This document shows, in pieces, positions 5,625 to 64,000 of a DNA stretch of 64,000 bases (positions within the stretch are counted from its first letter, which is position 1; every line of letters begins with the position of its first letter). The notes under the pieces were generated by a model. That model ran no database searches, was not told the DNA's origin, and saw only the letters and a program-made list of their open reading frames with translations. Origin of the DNA: a virus. The translations under genes and the position numbers were made by a program. The stretch lies in the UHGV virus genome UHGV-0076294; one strand, written 5' to 3'.

Positions 5625-7136
5625 ATGAAGAACGTTGATGTTGCTGTACTTTATACCGACGGTAGCCATTTAACCTCACCGATGGGAACAGGCGGTGGGA
5701 TTCACGGCTACCTGTTTAACAAGGAAGAGATTGTTGACGGTGGCGTTTATCGCCACCCTACCATTCCCGAAGGGATTACGACCTCTGGTTATCGTCAGAT
5801 TAACAAAGAGGAAAAACTTCCTGCGTTACCAGACTCTGTTGAGTTCGTAGACTGTGTTATTCCGGTACCGAAACACCACCACTCTGATGTTGCAGAGATT
5901 GTTGCTTTTTTAACCGTTTTCGAAAAAGCACCGTTCGTTGCAAAAAACTACGTTATCTATATCGACGCGTCTTACGTTGTGAATACGTTTAACGATTGGA
6001 TTGACGGTTGGGCTAAGCGGGACTGGCGACGGGCTGATGGAACCCCTATCGCGAACCTTGAACTGGTTCAACGGATGTGGGAAATTAAGAAACGTCTGAA
6101 GAGAGAAGGGAAAGGGATTCGTGTTCTTAAAATCAAAGGACACTCTGGTCACTACGGTAACGAACGGGCTGACGGGCTGGCACGAAAGGGATCATCCATC
6201 TCTGCGCACGGAGAAGGTTTAGATTATCAGGCGTACTGGTCAGCAGACGAAATCCCGGAAGAACAGCAGGAAGAAATCGTCAGTGAAGGCGTTAACGTTG
6301 CCGCGTTTCCTGATATTTGCGTAACTAAGTTCTGTTACCCGATGGTAAATGAGCAACACCCTACGGTTAAAGTAAACGGTGAAAATCTCTATTACATGTT
6401 CGGGGGTAACCACGCAAAACAGAAGGACGATATTGTCTTCGTCGGAAAATACATCCCTGATGCGCAGTTTTGTGTGATGTTTACACGTGAACCGTGGACG
6501 AACGTTTACGATTTGGTTAACGCCCACGCTGCTAAAGCCTGGGAGGGCGTACCACGTTTGCGTCAGTTTGACCCTATCGCTGTTGTGTTCAACCTGTTCG
6601 TAAAACGTAAGAAGTTTGCGGAAGCAGCGGCTAACGGTATCCCGGTTGACAAAATGCACTTTAGCGAAGACAAAAACCTGTGGATGTACGAAGACTTGTC
6701 TATCAGTCGTATTCTGCGTCCCGCGTTATTGTCATACCGCTGCGTAACCATTCGTGATGAACTGGCAGAGTGGCTGCGTGACTGTTTGGAAGGCAAATCG
6801 AACGTTGTCTTAAATGACATTACCGATTTGCTTTATGACGAAAAAGGTAAACCCACCAAAGACTTTTACCGAAACGTGGATAAAGGGTTTGACGTTTCCA
6901 TTAAAATTCCTAACGGGAAGGTTGACGTTAAAACTATTCTGACGCGTGCTATCGACATACCGACACGTACGGAAATCAACCGTATCAAAGAACCAAACGG
7001 GAGATTCTACATTGCCGTACGACGTCCAGAACGTCAGTATATTGAATATGCGTTAGTGTATATCGGTGAGAAGTATCATGGTCTGTGGTGTGGTTATTAT
7101 TCAAACAAACGAATATTGACCGATAAGGAACTTTGA
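5625..7136 (+). CDS. RNase HI domain protein with ~310-aa C-terminal extension of unknown function
   Basis: 503 aa. The first ~190 aa carry RNase HI blocks YTDGS, AEIVAF, IDASYV and HSGHYGNERADGLARKG. The rest has no motif I recognise. Confidence 0.85.
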   Translation: MKNVDVAVLYTDGSHLTSPMGTGGGIHGYLFNKEEIVDGGVYRHPTIPEGITTSGYRQINKEEKLPALPDSVEFVDCVIPVPKHHHSDVAEIVAFLTVFEKAPFVAKNYVIYIDASYVVNTFNDWIDGWAKRDWRRADGTPIANLELVQRMWEIKKRLKREGKGIRVLKIKGHSGHYGNERADGLARKGSSISAHGEGLDYQAYWSADEIPEEQQEEIVSEGVNVAAFPDICVTKFCYPMVNEQHPTVKVNGENLYYMFGGNHAKQKDDIVFVGKYIPDAQFCVMFTREPWTNVYDLVNAHAAKAWEGVPRLRQFDPIAVVFNLFVKRKKFAEAAANGIPVDKMHFSEDKNLWMYEDLSISRILRPALLSYRCVTIRDELAEWLRDCLEGKSNVVLNDITDLLYDEKGKPTKDFYRNVDKGFDVSIKIPNGKVDVKTILTRAIDIPTRTEINRIKEPNGRFYIAVRRPERQYIEYALVYIGEKYHGLWCGYYSNKRILTDKEL

Positions 7137-7804
7137 TGCTGATTGTTTTTAGTCAAGCGTTATCGATGGCACCGAGTTATATCCAGATACGCTTTTCAGC
7201 AATTGCGCGTCAGCAGTGGGGCTTTAAAGCCCCCTATTCTGACGACCACTATACACTCGGTGAAGTAGCACTTGAACTTGCTTTACGTTCATTGTGGGAA
7301 ATCATTGCATTGTACAATGCAGGTTGTGATATACCGAAAGATTGTTTCCCACAGCGGGTGATTGCACAAGGCACTACGAACACTTACGGTAATCCGGCAT
7401 TGGTGGAAGAGTGCTTAGGCTACGCTAACCAGTCTGGGGAACTGCAACATAACTTTAATCTGGTGATTAACAAAGTCTGGAGTGAGCTGGAAAGCTACCC
7501 TGAAAAGATTATCTGGTTTGATCGTAACCAATTCGTTAAGGAGGTGGCCAGTAAACGACCCGTACGTTTAGTTGCCTTAAAGCCCACCGACCTTGATTTG
7601 AAACAAACCTATCCCTTCCCAGAGGAAATTCGACTTTCTCCAGAAACCGTAGGTCACACTATTTTCAAACAAGGTGACGCCTGGATACTTCCTCACGATC
7701 TAGACCGTTTCCTGCTCAACTCCGATCAGATTCACTCCGGCTATGATTCTCTCGTAAAAGAGTTTCACATCGATCCCTATTTCGCTAAAAACTTTCTTAG
7801 ATAG
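7136..7804 (+). CDS. hypothetical protein
   Basis: 222 aa from an ATG overlapping the upstream stop (TGATG). The track start at 7133 is TTG. Confidence 0.7.
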   Translation: MLIVFSQALSMAPSYIQIRFSAIARQQWGFKAPYSDDHYTLGEVALELALRSLWEIIALYNAGCDIPKDCFPQRVIAQGTTNTYGNPALVEECLGYANQSGELQHNFNLVINKVWSELESYPEKIIWFDRNQFVKEVASKRPVRLVALKPTDLDLKQTYPFPEEIRLSPETVGHTIFKQGDAWILPHDLDRFLLNSDQIHSGYDSLVKEFHIDPYFAKNFLR

Positions 7805-7821
7805 ATATTATTCAGGTGTAG
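7800..7821 (+). promoter_or_regulatory. promoter-like motif, copy 1: GATAGATATTATTCAGGTGTAG
   Basis: Shares GAYAGATATTAT + N4-6 + GTG(A/T)AG with three other sites. Lies 20 nt upstream of ATG 7842. Confidence 0.4.
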
Positions 7822-9125: not shown

Positions 9126-9650
9126 ATGGATATTTTAATTCAGCTTCGTAAGAAAACAACCATTGCCACGCCGATAGCGTTAGAGGAGAAAATCTCTGGC
9201 GCGGTTGCACGCAAGCTCTGTGGTGCTCACGGCTTTAGCAGTCATCAGGAACAGGTCGTTACTGCCGCCACATTACACAACTTACGGCACACAGTACATT
9301 ACTGTTTAGCTGACAACGTCACCATCACTCTTGATGATGGCGCAGCAGCCGACCAACTGCGTCGTGAAATTGACCACAAGATCGGCGTTTATAAAAGACG
9401 TTTTGATCGTGCCTGTGCACGTTTAACCGATGACAAGGAATTATGGAAACGTTTGAAACTTGAAATTGAGTATGCGGCGCAGCGTTACGGGATTGGCGGT
9501 ACCGAACCGTTGCTGTCCGAACAAGAAATCATGTTAGCAATCGAAGTTTACATCACCGTTTGTATCGCCATCCTGAAAGAAACCGACTACGAAATTACAA
9601 AAGCGTTGTTAAACACCGCAGACAGACTCACCCCAATTTTAGGACAGTAA
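9126..9650 (+). CDS. hypothetical protein
   Basis: 174-aa ORF, SD AAAGGGG upstream, 2-nt spacer. Confidence 0.75.
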   Translation: MDILIQLRKKTTIATPIALEEKISGAVARKLCGAHGFSSHQEQVVTAATLHNLRHTVHYCLADNVTITLDDGAAADQLRREIDHKIGVYKRRFDRACARLTDDKELWKRLKLEIEYAAQRYGIGGTEPLLSEQEIMLAIEVYITVCIAILKETDYEITKALLNTADRLTPILGQ

Positions 9651-16868: not shown

Positions 16869-16899
16869 TTAAAACCACCTCATTTTCAAAAAGAAGTCA

Positions 16900-16922
16900 G
16901 ACAGATATTATTTACGTGAGAC
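16900..16922 (+). promoter_or_regulatory. promoter-like motif, copy 2: GACAGATATTATTTACGTGAGAC
   Basis: In a divergent intergenic region, 20 nt upstream of ATG 16941. Confidence 0.45.
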
Positions 16923-47290: not shown

Positions 47291-47315
47291 TAGATATATA
47301 TTACTTAGGTGAGCG
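47291..47315 (+). promoter_or_regulatory. promoter-like motif, copy 3 (variant): TAGATATATATTACTTAGGTGAGCG
   Basis: Just after the terminator at 47230, 50 nt upstream of ATG 47365. Confidence 0.4.
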
Positions 47316-58275: not shown

Positions 58276-60384
58276 ATGATACTACGTGAATCGGACTGGC
58301 GTTATTATCCAGGCGCTATTGTTGACGATAAAACAACAAACAAATCCTTTATCAAGTTTGCTAACTTACTGAAAAAATTGGGTGTAAAACACTGGTACAT
58401 TCACCTGGCGTTACATAACCCACTGTTGCAGGGCGTAGACCCGTTCGATGAAAACCTTTCAGAACAGATGAAGGCATACATCGCCATCGAATGTGCTGAG
58501 AACCCGTGGTACTGGTTCAGGGAATGTGTCAGGGTGCCTGCGGACGGTATGAAGTACGGTTCCCCGTTCCGTATCGACCGTGGTAACTTCTCGATGTACT
58601 GGATTTTCTTTAACAACATCGACGTTGCTGTAGAGTTCTTACGTCAGCACGGTAAAACCGTCGGGATGAGTGGCTTACTGCTGTGGTTGATTCGTTTCTT
58701 AGAAAACTCCCGAACAATTCTTATCACAAAAGGCCCGGCACTGCGTGAAGAAACTATCAACAAACTGAAACAACTTCGTAACGGTTTACCGAGTTACCTC
58801 TGGCCAGCGCATCCTGATGACCCAGATAACCGAGAAACCTTTGCGTGTTTAGCCCAGGGTAACAAACTGATTACAGGTATCGGCCAAAACGACCCAGAGT
58901 CCGCTAACGGTATCGGTCGTGGACTTACCGCTGGTCGTCTGTTCTCGGACGAAGGCCCCTTTACCAAAAACGTACACCACATTCTACCGGCAGCCCTGGC
59001 ATCCGGTACAGCGGCACGTCGTATTAACGAAGCGGAAGGTGTTCCTTACGGTAACGTATTCGCAACAACCCCTGGTGACTTAGCGACGGAAGAGGGCAAG
59101 TACATGTACGAGCTGATGACGTCAGGGATTATGTGGGATGAGCGCTATATCGACATTCCAACCCGTAAACAGCTCATTGACATCATCCGTTCTAACTCCA
59201 CGGCAGAAGTACCACGTATCATGTTCTACGTGAAGTACAACCACCGTCAGCTCGGTACCACCGATGAACAGTTAGCGGCAATGATTGCGAACGCCAAAGG
59301 TACCCCTGACCAGATCCGTCGTGACTTCGGTGGGGAATGGACAACCGGTGGTCTGAACAAGCCGTTCTCAGCGGAAGATGCAGATCGTATGAATGCTTCA
59401 CGAATGCGTGCAGTGTTCAAAGATATCTCACCACAAAACTACGTTACCGACTGGTACTACACCGAAGAAGAAATGATGATGAAACTCAAAGATCGTCATG
59501 TCATCGGTTTGGATACCTCCGAAGCCGTAGGTCGTGATGCGATCGCTATGTCCATCGTCAACGCGGTCACGGCCGAGTACGCCGGTAAGCTTACCGTTAA
59601 CGAATCCAACGTTATTTCGTTCGCGATCCATTTAGCGGATTTTATGGTGCGATATCCGAACACGGTACTGATTCTGGAACGACGCTCAACAGGCTCATCC
59701 GTTGCAGATGCGGTTATCCTGCAATTGCAATCACGGGTGTCCGATTTACACCGTCGTTTGTTTGTGCGAATCACCCAGGACTACTCGCGTACGGACGATC
59801 TCTACAAAGAGTATCACCGTGGCCCAGTGGGTAGCGCAGAGAAATTCTGGAATAAATTCCGCAAATACATCGGGTTCTCAACCGACCAGGAGAAACGTCG
59901 TAAACTGTACGGTGAGGTATTCACCACTGCGTTGCGCTTGTCTGCCGATAAACTCCGTTGTGGAGAGCTCATCGACCAAATTCTTAACCTCGTGGAGAAA
60001 AATGGTCGTATCGACCACAAAGCATCTGGTCACGATGACCTTGTGATTTCTTGGTTACTTGCAATGTGGTTATTGCTACTTGGGAATAACTTAGGGCATT
60101 ACGAGATCAACAACAGCCGTTTGATGATGCGTAATCGTAACTTGGCAGAAAACCGGGAAGGGGTGGACGAAGAGTTACAGCTTGAAGAGGAAGCGCGACA
60201 GCAAAAACTGATGGGGGAAATTGAGCAGTTAGTGAGAACGACCCACGGGTTACTCGACCCGGTCCAAGCAATGGCCGCTCGTAACCGACTTCAGGCCCTC
60301 ATCTCTCAACTTAACACTGATACACAAAACGTGGCGTCAATGGAAAGCTTGAGAGAGCTTCTCCAACGCCAGAGGATGAAGTGA
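58276..60384 (+). CDS. terL: terminase large subunit (T4 gp17-like)
   Basis: 702 aa. Walker A LRQHGKTV (cf. gp17 SRQLGKT), Walker B GRLFSDEGPF, nuclease Asp blocks VIGLDTSEAVGRD and SGHDDLVISWLLAMW. Confidence 0.85.
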   Translation: MILRESDWRYYPGAIVDDKTTNKSFIKFANLLKKLGVKHWYIHLALHNPLLQGVDPFDENLSEQMKAYIAIECAENPWYWFRECVRVPADGMKYGSPFRIDRGNFSMYWIFFNNIDVAVEFLRQHGKTVGMSGLLLWLIRFLENSRTILITKGPALREETINKLKQLRNGLPSYLWPAHPDDPDNRETFACLAQGNKLITGIGQNDPESANGIGRGLTAGRLFSDEGPFTKNVHHILPAALASGTAARRINEAEGVPYGNVFATTPGDLATEEGKYMYELMTSGIMWDERYIDIPTRKQLIDIIRSNSTAEVPRIMFYVKYNHRQLGTTDEQLAAMIANAKGTPDQIRRDFGGEWTTGGLNKPFSAEDADRMNASRMRAVFKDISPQNYVTDWYYTEEEMMMKLKDRHVIGLDTSEAVGRDAIAMSIVNAVTAEYAGKLTVNESNVISFAIHLADFMVRYPNTVLILERRSTGSSVADAVILQLQSRVSDLHRRLFVRITQDYSRTDDLYKEYHRGPVGSAEKFWNKFRKYIGFSTDQEKRRKLYGEVFTTALRLSADKLRCGELIDQILNLVEKNGRIDHKASGHDDLVISWLLAMWLLLLGNNLGHYEINNSRLMMRNRNLAENREGVDEELQLEEEARQQKLMGEIEQLVRTTHGLLDPVQAMAARNRLQALISQLNTDTQNVASMESLRELLQRQRMK

Positions 60385-62075: not shown

Positions 62076-62099
62076 GGATAGATATTATCCTAGTGAGAG
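62076..62099 (+). promoter_or_regulatory. promoter-like motif, copy 4: GGATAGATATTATCCTAGTGAGAG
   Basis: In a divergent intergenic region, 27 nt upstream of ATG 62126. Confidence 0.45.
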
Positions 62100-62125
62100 T
62101 CTTATTACCTAAAGGAGTTTTTACC

Positions 62126-63250
62126 ATGAGAAATTATCTGCGCAAACCCGCTTGGCACAAGATGTTGCGTGAAGGTACCATCGACCGCGAACAGCAAGTC
62201 AAGATGTGGGTGCTTCCTCACGGCGTAATTTGTGACCTGGTCAGAGTCGGTGGGATGGACATCCTGCGTAACGGTACCTACGACGCCGTCAACTCGTTCT
62301 TAGCACGAGAACTGGCGGAAGCAGGGTTACAAGGTGAGGTGTTATTTTACACCACCCGTGTTATCCCGCAAACATTGTCTAAGTGGTTAACGTACTGGCT
62401 GTCTAGTGACCCTGACGCATCAGACCCCGAACTCAGTTCGGTAACGATTACCACACTAGGCCAGTATCCCACGAAACCCTTACCATTTCAGGTGAACGTT
62501 GTTGAGCCGTTAATCGTAAAAGCCGGTGACGTGTTTGACATGATTAAAGTCAAATCCCGTAACCAAGCCGTTTCCCAGTTTATCATCGAAACGGGTGAAC
62601 ACACATTCCGATTAGAACCTGTCCGTAAAACCGATGCGACGCTGCTGGCCGTAACGGATTACGGAATCGTTTGTCGTTCTTCCGAAGGGCACACCTTCCT
62701 GTGCACGATACTCTCACGACGTATTCAGGCACAGTTAGAACACTACAAACTTTCCCTGGAAGACATCGTCGGTACGACGTTACGTATCGAATACACGATG
62801 TACACGGAAGGGAATCGGTTGTGTAATTACAAGTCCCCTATCGCATACCGAGCGTTAGCGCTGGACAACATGGGAGACTGGGTCTCAACGACATACGAAG
62901 GGCCTTCCCCGTTCAAAACCATCCCAACCCAACGACCGGCGTTGTTGACCGTCACCCGCTGTAACCGTGCCGAGATTTTCGAGGAAGAGGGTGTGATTTC
63001 CGGTTACGAACGTGAAACAGGATTAACGCTTTTCCGCTTCCGACGGGGTGCGGAGTACGGTCGCTATGCTGCCGTGTTCGAACGAGACGGTAAGCAAGAA
63101 ACCTGGCTTTTCGATTCGGATTTCTCCGTTGAGGTGATTGACCCTGAAGGCTTTGTGGCTTCAGTGGGGAGTCAGATTTTCTACGCCACGGGCTACAGCC
63201 TGCTGGACGTAAAACTGCACTACCCTCAGAAAGAACAGGTCTGTCCGTAA
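62126..63250 (+). CDS. hypothetical protein
   Basis: 374 aa from ATG 62126 (SD AAAGGAG 8 nt upstream). The track start GTG 62093 lies inside the promoter-like motif. Confidence 0.8.
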   Translation: MRNYLRKPAWHKMLREGTIDREQQVKMWVLPHGVICDLVRVGGMDILRNGTYDAVNSFLARELAEAGLQGEVLFYTTRVIPQTLSKWLTYWLSSDPDASDPELSSVTITTLGQYPTKPLPFQVNVVEPLIVKAGDVFDMIKVKSRNQAVSQFIIETGEHTFRLEPVRKTDATLLAVTDYGIVCRSSEGHTFLCTILSRRIQAQLEHYKLSLEDIVGTTLRIEYTMYTEGNRLCNYKSPIAYRALALDNMGDWVSTTYEGPSPFKTIPTQRPALLTVTRCNRAEIFEEEGVISGYERETGLTLFRFRRGAEYGRYAAVFERDGKQETWLFDSDFSVEVIDPEGFVASVGSQIFYATGYSLLDVKLHYPQKEQVCP

Positions 63251-63258
63251 AAAATTAT

Positions 63259-63298
63259 CGGGTGGCTTCGGCCACCTGTTTTTTTTTATTTTTTTTTG
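63259..63298. terminator. bidirectional terminator
   Basis: CGGGTGGC ttcg GCCACCTG followed by T9AT9; AAAAAA on the 5' side serves the opposite direction. Confidence 0.8.
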
Positions 63299-63752
63299 CC
63301 AAAAAACTTCGACCTCCTCAGAGCGATTCTAACGTATTTTTAGGTCGAGGTGGTACGTTCGTATACCCTGGGTGAGTTTTTCTCGTTAGAGAGCTTCTCA
63401 GGAAGAATTTGACGGGGTTTTATTCCCTGTCGAAGAATTTATTTTAACCCAAACCGCAACAAACCCCAAAACCGGGTGCTGGGATGTCTCTGGAAACCCT
63501 ATCCGGTTGGTGATTTTTTAACCGGATTTCGTAAAACGCTCTAGAAACGATTTTAACGCGGTTTTTACCCCTACCCAGTACACTTGGGTTACCTGATCCT
63601 GTTTAGCGCGATGTGGAGCGATTGAGAAAGCGTACGACCCATTGCCGAGGGTGGGTGAGACCCGACCCTGCCACCCGACGGCCAGCCGCCGCGCCGATCA
63701 AAAAAACATTCACGCTTCGCGTACTAACGGATCAAGTGATTGGATCAACGTT

Positions 63753-63779
63753 TTGAATCTTCACACACTGAAGATTCAA
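63753..63779. repeat. perfect 11-bp hairpin TTGAATCTTCA cacac TGAAGATTCAA
   Basis: Read directly from the sequence. Confidence 0.8.
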
Positions 63780-63816
63780 GTTGAGTAGTTATCTTGCTTG
63801 GTTTTTTAAATACTCA

Positions 63817-63837
63817 CGAGAGACCTCAAGTCTCTCG
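63817..63837. repeat. perfect 8-bp hairpin CGAGAGAC ctcaa GTCTCTCG
   Basis: Read directly from the sequence. Confidence 0.8.
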
Positions 63838-63892
63838 GATCGATCTTAAAAATTTAACTCTCTCAAAAAACCTGATCTCAAAATCTCTTCCT

Positions 63893-63920
63893 TATACGCG
63901 TGTGCGTGCGCACACGTATA
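63893..63920. repeat. 28-nt perfect alternating pyrimidine-purine tract (YR)14, also an imperfect palindrome
   Basis: TATACGCGTGTGCGTGCGCACACGTATA. TATACG/CGTATA and TGTGCG/CGCACA arms. Confidence 0.85.
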
Positions 63921-63922
63921 GT

Positions 63923-63950
63923 ATAATATATTTATTTATAAATATATTAT
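63923..63950. promoter_or_regulatory. perfect 12-bp AT-only inverted repeat (ATAATATATTTA ttta TAAATATATTAT) carrying outward-facing copies of the ATATTAT promoter-like core
   Basis: Plus strand reads AAATATATTATTCC (cf. copy 1 GATATTATTCA). Minus strand reads AAATATATTATACTATACGTGTG (cf. copy 2 GATATTATTTACGTGAG). Confidence 0.4.
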
Positions 63951-64000
63951 TCCTTTAGGATCAAAATAATAATACCTTTAGGTATTATTTAATTATATAT

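Follow-up and report, generated by a model that had tools for sequence, protein, structure and literature searches.

In the origins oriS and oriL of herpes simplex virus (HSV) and in the core origin of simian virus 40 (SV40), recognition repeats or palindromes that contain GC lie on both sides of an A/T centre. In the packaging (pac) site of phage P1, two clusters of Dam sites flank a centre. Here, we analyse a noncoding locus that invites comparison with both, at the 3' end of a 64,000-nucleotide stretch (the window) of UHGV virus genome UHGV-0076294, which comes from an SPN3US-like, phiKZ-related jumbo phage. For the start of replication and packaging in phiKZ-like phages (Chimalliviridae), a sharply bounded conserved module offers a concrete experimental target. 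These phages have RNase H but no DnaG or AEP primases, and priming by RNA polymerase has been proposed (PMC7824862). The promoters of their virion RNA polymerases are about 10 nt long, highly conserved and A/T-rich (PMC5312081, PMC7598289), and the promoter motif of AR9 is AAATATATATTAT-(6N)-G (PMC5312081). A 2026 review of jumbo phage biology mentions neither pac site, headful nor replication initiation, and 'origin' there never means a replication origin. Full-text literature searches gave no paper on the module presented below and none that locates an origin or pac site in phages of the SPN3US type.

A conserved noncoding module

The original prediction pointed to two adjoining motifs, a pyrimidine-purine (YR) alternation and an A/T-only inverted repeat, and took such a GC-alternating block next to an easily melted one for a special cis-acting site. 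Our comparison places both motifs at the left boundary of a more extensive conserved noncoding module, which is single-copy in SPN3US. The conservation and uniqueness of this module support a special site; the divergent promoters also suggested there find no such support, as discussed below. When the long noncoding gap holding the feature was searched with sensitive blastn, 18 records matched, all from Seoulvirus-type phages. Sixteen of them align solely over window positions 63888-63996, the feature itself, and none of the 18 carries an annotation at the locus. The module was found in L013, L014, L015, L016, L026, L055, L057, L075, L079 and L089 of the window's clade and in SPN3US, MET_P1, phiEaH2, Asesino, SPAsTU, L021 and L032.

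The order of parts is the same in Seoulvirus, Erskinevirus, SPAsTU, Huxley-like phages and the window's clade. A GATC cluster is followed by an alternating-GC block (TATACGCG...GCGCAC...), a CCTnnAGGATC dyad and 90-210 bp of near-pure A/T, within which lie small GC-centred dyads, either one or two. Then come another alternating-GC block (AAAACGCG(YG)nCGCG), the box GATCCTTATTAnGAGATC and more GATC. ACGCG(T/C)G opens both GC blocks. The noncoding DNA around the module is much less conserved than the module itself. The feature is truncated by the end of the window, and in close relatives the A/T block runs 100-200 bp further. In the near-identical contigs L013, L079, L014, L057, L075 and L089 it measures 115-210 bp in total, a length that thus varies even among close relatives, and is followed by a second alternating block, AAAACGCGCGCGATCC, and then by GATCCTTATTATGAGATCTGATC. 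The YR tract beyond the A/T block reaches 23 nt in relatives (L026).

The uniqueness of the module was established in SPN3US, the one complete module-bearing genome. Over the whole genome, the only A/T-only block is that of the module, with 5 G/C in its lowest 100-bp window and 26 in the next lowest. The module therefore holds the least stable duplex of SPN3US, as expected of a DNA unwinding element (DUE). Of its own A/T block, the window shows the left 80 bp.

Table 1. Positions of the features of the locus within the window, from left to right.
Feature	Position	Strand	Remarks
Intrinsic terminator (GC stem and T run)	63259..63290	+	Stem 63259-63278; ends ORF 62093-63250
Left GATC cluster	63595..63962		8 sites in 368 bp vs 2.55 per kb window-wide
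Hairpin/dyad TTGAATCTTCA-cacac-TGAAGATTCAA	63753..63779		-11.7 kcal/mol, z = -5.4
Second upstream hairpin CGAGAGAC-ctcaa-GTCTCTCG	63817..63837		-8.4 kcal/mol, z = -4.5
Left YR block (YR)14, TATACGCGTGTGCGTGCGCACACGTATA	63893..63920		Perfect 28-nt alternation
Left part of A/T-rich unwinding-type block	63921..64000		Cut by window end at 64000
Perfect A/T-only inverted repeat, 13-nt arms and 2-nt spacer	63923..63950		Arms 63923-63935 and 63938-63950, 100% complementary
Dyad TCCTTTAGGATC, family-wide CCTnnAGGATC element	63951..63962		Directly after A/T repeat
GC-centred small dyad AATAATACCT-tt-AGGTATTATT	63968..63989		Within A/T block; z = -2.5

The perfect 28-nt alternation claimed for the left YR block was confirmed from the sequence. 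This is the only YR run of at least 20 nt in the 64 kb, where shuffles average 0.16 hits, and a run of at least 28 nt is expected by chance 5e-4 times per 64 kb. The homologous run of SPN3US (23 nt) is the longest in that 240-kb genome, the runner-up having 16 nt, and homologous blocks are present in phiEaH2, Asesino, L021 and L032. The block has a Z-DNA-prone core of 20 bp of CG/TG/CA steps and exceeds the roughly 12 bp of alternation rich in CG and CA/TG steps by which such tracts are recognised. The same block had been described as an imperfect palindrome. We found only a 7-bp stem (z = -1.0), and 29 of 200 shuffles folded equally well; this symmetry is weak, alternating GC-rich tracts are all half self-complementary, and we rejected the block as a true palindrome.

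The perfect A/T-only inverted repeat ATAATATATTTA-TTTA-TAAATATATTAT is indeed present, with a symmetry slightly better than the 12-bp arms claimed for it: in its 13-nt form it reads ATAATATATTTAT-TT-ATAAATATATTAT, and a GT separates it from the YR block. ATATTAT stands at the outer end of both arms, as had been noted. Folded as DNA, the hairpin reaches -5.6 kcal/mol (z = -3.4) and beats 198 of 200 shuffles; three consecutive hairpins in 63885-64000 give z = -5.7 against shuffles. With perfect arms of more than about 10 bp and a short spacer, the repeat is a candidate cruciform or hairpin. Seven window-clade sequences have it with 100% identity, whereas SPN3US, phiEaH2, Asesino, SPAsTU, L021 and L032/Huxley lack it. 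It represents a clade-specific insertion of 31 bp that separates the YR block from the CCTnnAGGATC dyad and is therefore not the core of the conserved element. The dyad itself occurs in all members (CCTCCAGGATC, CCTACAGGATC, CCTTTAGGATC), and its GATC is conserved in every one. Every member also has the small GC-centred dyad, whose arms change in pairs (ATACCT..AGGTAT, ATATCT..AGATAT, TATCCC..GGGATA).

The GATC sites of the left cluster start at 63595, 63696, 63730, 63743, 63838, 63842, 63874 and 63959 and make up the densest 400-bp windows of the whole stretch (Poisson P = 6e-6, about 1e-3 after correction). A matching right-hand cluster lies beyond the window end in relatives. The contexts of the sites on both sides of the module vary; only some are TGATC, and GATC alone is shared. 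In SPN3US, the module is the densest GATC cluster of the genome (10 sites in about 350 bp vs 2.03 per kb, P = 5e-9). GATC is thus 14-fold enriched at the module in a genome that has only about half of the GATC expected from base composition. Genome-wide frequencies per kb are 2.03 in SPN3US (about half of that expected), 0.71 in Cronobacter phage CR5 (about a fifth) and 6.83 in phage RAY (1.75 times). Among these three phages, a Dam-family methylase was found only in SPN3US (gp105, PF02086, E = 2.5e-52).

Seven window-clade sequences, whose upstream noncoding DNA is 67-89% identical, were compared over the module. Positions 63926-64000 are 98-100% identical among them. Only one patch within 63876-64000 varies, and this is the YR block: 8 of its 28 sites differ, compared with 9 of 122 flanking sites (Fisher P = 0.004). 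The block occurs as four haplotypes of constant 28-nt length, and all eight variable sites are transitions; given the transition fraction of 0.41-0.56 in the flanks, an all-transition block has P = 0.001-0.01. Between genera, the length of the block differs by multiples of two. Since the changes are all transitions and the length is kept, it is the alternation, not the sequence, that persists. If selection is the cause, the YR blocks would provide an exceptionally clear case from nature in which the conformation of DNA is selected and not its sequence.

Candidate functions of the module

We tentatively prefer the reading that the module is an origin-type DNA-unwinding site, where the duplex would open to start replication; judging from sequence features, this is a possible role and not yet a probable one. 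The near-pure A/T core of 90-210 bp would melt, or extrude A/T hairpins, under negative superhelical stress, and the two alternating CG/TG/CA blocks would act as stiff GC clamps setting the edges of the bubble. These clamps, being Z-DNA-prone, may absorb or release superhelical stress beside it. A dimeric protein encoded by the phage may bind to the dyads CCTnnAGGATC and ATAYCY-nn-RGRTAT, and the dense flanking GATC would make the site responsive to Dam methylation, as oriC is. Because these phages have no recognisable primase, we propose that promoter-like A/T sequences may let a phage multisubunit RNA polymerase make the first primer. In favour of an origin we count the uniqueness of the locus in SPN3US, the shared order of parts across genera, and a composition and structure that are maintained as the sequence drifts. 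The anatomy of the module, this uniqueness, the pattern of conservation and the enrichment of GATC are shown by the sequences, from which unwinding, Z-DNA formation, protein binding, priming and the role in replication are inferred. The origin, cruciform, protein-binding and Z-DNA readings of the original prediction are plausible.

Rough estimates with parameters from the literature give thresholds of about sigma -0.04 to -0.05 for three events, namely the B-Z transition, melting of the A/T DNA and extrusion of a cruciform; the B-Z threshold of the YR block alone is put at about sigma -0.04. With such similar thresholds, the parts of the module would compete or cooperate for the same stress. 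At the right-hand side, the conserved box GATCCTTATTAAGAGATC is similar to the R 13-mer region of Escherichia coli oriC when this is read in reverse complement, GATCCTAATAAGAGATC, with an alignment score of 25 vs 15.4 +/- 2.2 for shuffles. The module has one conserved 13-mer-like box together with GATC clustering, not three tandem 13-mers.

The proposal in its complete form is a stress-sensing origin of SPN3US-like phages, in which an A/T DUE would be gated by Z-DNA-prone clamps and Dam methylation and primed by the polymerase. That all of this applies together is rather doubtful. If true, it would be the first origin defined for SPN3US-like nucleus-forming jumbo phages, and it would show that purine-pyrimidine alternation can in itself be selected for in nature.

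Several observations weigh against an origin. The likeness to oriC consists largely of two GATC and an A/T spacer and was scored against mononucleotide shuffles only. No DnaA boxes (TTATNCACA, at most one mismatch) were found in the noncoding regions of the window, L013, L014 and phiEaH2, with single background-level matches in SPN3US and SPAsTU. The modules of all members lack an IHF site (WATCAANNNNTTR), and there is no iteron array, two CCTnnAGG-type dyads being seen instead. In SPN3US, the cumulative GC skew climbs almost without reversal and tracks gene orientation, so that it is uninformative about an origin. The flanking open reading frames (ORFs) have no replication annotation that survives Pfam, PHROGs and PDB sequence searches. 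RAY, a more distant enterobacterial relative, lacks the signature: its GATC is over-represented genome-wide and it has no unique A/T block. The module is therefore lineage-specific and not a general chimallivirus feature. Large lytic phages may moreover depend mostly on recombination-dependent replication. Finally, transition-only change in a CG/TG/CA tract could reflect slippage or deamination and not selection, which makes the evidence from alternation suggestive, not proof.

One motif, TTTTTAACC, was considered as an iteron and rejected: it is a dispersed intergenic plus-strand motif, usually placed right after terminator hairpins, and is not specific to the module. Its sites lie at 5907, 10170, 47266 and 63515 (+) in the window and at 101211, 163304, 239947 and 240148 in SPN3US.

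Cronobacter phage CR5 has no module at the syntenic place. It does have one analogous locus (NC_021531.1, 13,220-13,440; L123, about 9,220-9,440), which we count in favour of an origin and at which the lowest-GC 100-bp window coincides with the densest GATC, 8 sites in about 170 bp vs 0.71 per kb genome-wide. This locus is not sequence-homologous to the module. It lies 0.5 kb downstream of CR5_020, a 'DNA polymerase' by record label only; the terminase gene is about 20 kb away if one counts through the ends of the record. A G-run sequence, GGGGGAGGGGCCTACGGGGGAGGGGG, is present on its left flank.

An alternative to the origin is a pac site of the P1 type, in which the terminase would recognise the methylated flanking Dam clusters and make the first headful cut in the A/T core. 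Two GATC clusters around a centre of 100-200 bp and a phage-encoded Dam-family methylase (PF02086 in SPN3US) are both found as in P1, and the module stands at the end of the structural block with the large terminase gene about 3.5 kb upstream. We nevertheless consider this reading unlikely. The sites form no uniform TGATCA/G-type hexamer, GATC alone being shared, and the IHF site expected of a P1-type pac is absent from the module of every member. In CR5, the analogous locus adjoins the gene labelled 'DNA polymerase', not the terminase gene, and the GATC cluster exists there with no Dam homologue.

The ends of assemblies bear on the same question. Seven independent metagenomic contigs begin or end in the A/T block or at its edge (L003/L016, L015, L026, L055, L063, L085 and L094), and so does the window. 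At least seven independent window-clade assemblies (contigs of 220-229 kb), however, read through the block, and the breaks are therefore more simply explained by assembly failure in extreme A/T low-complexity DNA. The A/T block is in any case a practical assembly weak point for these phages. We also considered record starts as genome ends and discarded them: the first base of the SPN3US record lies 68 bp ahead of the block, and in the Erwinia relatives base 1 was set to agree with an alignment of the family and not by mapping termini (PMC6256631). For two giant Aeromonas phages discussed with phiKZ, PhageTerm gave no obvious termini (PMC12390700). The records of EC001, Lh1B and JN03 end about 30 bp after the match.

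The module could also be a non-B-DNA hotspot with no dedicated function, or have another cis role. In the first case, low-complexity A/T and microsatellite-like CG/TG DNA would simply persist because the noncoding gap is large, and slippage would mutate it; in the second, the module would be bound or anchored for handling of the genome, for instance its compaction, tethering or transfer into the phage nucleus. The variable length of the A/T block among close relatives fits a hotspot, as do changes in the YR block that keep the alternation in the way slippage or deamination would. Palindromes also arise easily in A/T-only DNA, where we estimate about 1.2 stems of at least 10 bp by chance per 210 nt. 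Such a hotspot would hardly be expected to keep the order of its parts across genera despite diverged flanking noncoding DNA, to remain 98-100% identical over 63926-64000 where the upstream noncoding DNA is 67-89% identical, or to show 14-fold enrichment of GATC in a GATC-poor genome. The YR block, moreover, is exactly 28 nt long in all four haplotypes. We regard this reading as improbable.

Control of transcription fares less well and is, in our judgement, quite improbable. The module would then act as weak or divergent promoters for the phage RNA polymerase, or as a terminator or insulator between the late structural genes and the next block, with the small hairpins serving as RNA or promoter elements. 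Conserved A/T-rich promoters are typical of phiKZ-like virion polymerases (PMC5312081, PMC7598289), and the repeat arm ATAAATATATTAT matches the AR9 motif at 11 of 13 positions; yet for the AR9 polymerase even one base that departs from the consensus is too many (PMC5312081). The module is flanked by a terminator and by a downstream noncoding region with TATG-type elements and structured RNA. As for termination, the terminator scan found no intrinsic terminator in 63890-64000, and the A/T hairpins have no G-C pairs, unlike intrinsic terminators.

The phage family has two dispersed promoter-like motifs, AGATATATATTACYTAGGTGAG and the related AGATAGATATTATCTnnGTGAG, which are probably promoters of phage RNA polymerases. 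AGATATATATTACYTAGGTGAG has one exact copy in the window (47292-47313, +), and SPN3US has six that are exact or nearly so; every copy lies on the + strand. AGATAGATATTATCTnnGTGAG has many copies directly upstream of genes, among them those at 62076-62097 (before ORF 62093), 16899-16920 and 7799-7820 (+) in the window. ATATTAT is the core of AGATAGATATTATCTnnGTGAG, and this is all that the repeat arms share with the dispersed motifs, both arms having at least 8 mismatches in 22 to the class A consensus. A threshold of at most 7 mismatches in 22 recovers both motif classes elsewhere (window 47292 with 0 mismatches, and 62076). At this threshold, no ungapped class A match was found in the module of the window, L013 or MET_P1, and no site in 63880-64000 qualified as an early promoter of the phiKZ type. 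Within the 64 kb, TATATTAT is confined to the two arms, and TAAATATATTAT is likewise not repeated elsewhere in the window; a dispersed promoter was therefore rejected, the real dispersed motifs being different. The divergent promoters of the original prediction are unsupported because the module has no class A site within the threshold and TATATTAT does not recur. Weak binding of a polymerase may still take place. Where the A/T block ends on the right, the genera have no promoter-like sequence in common, and a promoter would leave unexplained the 100-200 bp pure A/T tract, both alternating-GC blocks, the GATC clusters and the one-per-genome status of the module. Lastly, an origin of the host type, i.e. 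DnaA-dependent, was rejected for lack of DnaA boxes, apart from the background-level matches, and of IHF sites.

Neighbouring genes and other noncoding sequences

In its terminase region, the window is about 75% identical at the nucleotide level to Salmonella phage SPN3US and Erwinia phages phiEaH2 and Asesino. The large terminase protein is 68-84% identical to those of this group vs about 35% to those of phiKZ or RAY. Its gene spans 58276-60384. The long noncoding gap starts after ORF 62093-63250 (+) and its terminator, and the terminator scan gave a second site at 63408. The homologue of this ORF in one GenBank record (MET_P1_082_240) is labelled 'putative DNA ligase'; we rejected this label, for which there was no Pfam match and no sequence relative in the PDB. 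The PHROG of the ORF is of unknown function.

Further conserved noncoding blocks (cgtaaaacgctctagaaacg...cccagtacacttgggt) were observed upstream of the module, at window positions 63514-63600 and 63700-63840, and the upstream conserved noncoding block also aligned to two Seoulvirus records. The two upstream hairpins of Table 1 lie in this region. The first occupies the same position in other genera with other stems (GTAACCGACA..TGTCGGTTAC in SPN3US, GTAATTCGCA..TGCGAATTAC in phiEaH2), and the second is also retained in relatives with differing stem sequences.

On the other side of the module, relatives have a noncoding block, about 250 nt long and strongly conserved, immediately before the first ORF that follows the gap. 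It lies about 0.6-0.9 kb beyond the 3' end of the window (L013, 8600-8870; SPN3US record, about 900-1170) and is also present in L014, phiEaH2, Asesino, SPAsTU, L021 and L032. RNAalifold predicted 55 pairs in this block, 22 of them with compensatory double changes, and Rfam gave no match to it. It is a candidate for a new structured RNA or leader of SPN3US-like jumbo phages. In the whole noncoding region of L013 and in L002, Rfam gave no credible match other than tRNAs.

Comparison with known systems

A close bacterial counterpart is the DUE of E. coli oriC. The two share an A/T-rich unwinding region, very dense GATC in a setting of Dam-positive enterobacterial hosts, and, in the module, a box close to the reverse-complement R 13-mer. 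Unlike oriC, the module has no nearby DnaA boxes or IHF site, and its A/T block is much longer and nearly pure. oriC in turn lacks the alternating-GC brackets, and the phage brings its own replication proteins.

With the pac site of P1, the module has in common two Dam clusters around about 100-200 bp, its single-copy status in a headful-packaging phage and, in SPN3US, a methylase of the phage itself. It differs in having neither repeated TGATCA/G hexamers nor an IHF site, in its position outside the terminase gene and in the assemblies that read through it.

The primary origin of T7 and oriF and oriG of T4, which combine a promoter with an A/T-rich element, are primed by transcription. They resemble the module in its promoter-like A/T motifs at an easily melted tract, in a phage group with RNase H and no recognisable primase. 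The module differs in that it contains no canonical copy of the dispersed motifs.

Z-DNA tracts of the (CG)n/(CA-TG)n type are matched by the 28-nt alternation with its 20-bp core, by the second tract of relatives and by the maintenance of the alternation. In contrast to such tracts, the YR block adjoins an A/T block of similar estimated threshold, which would compete with it for superhelical energy.

The origins of HSV and SV40 belong to unrelated organisms, with unrelated proteins and sequences, and the flanks of the module are drifting purine-pyrimidine tracts, not fixed boxes. What these origins and the module share is an architecture: a central A/T region that would melt, GC-containing symmetric flanks, dyad symmetry and the potential to form hairpins.

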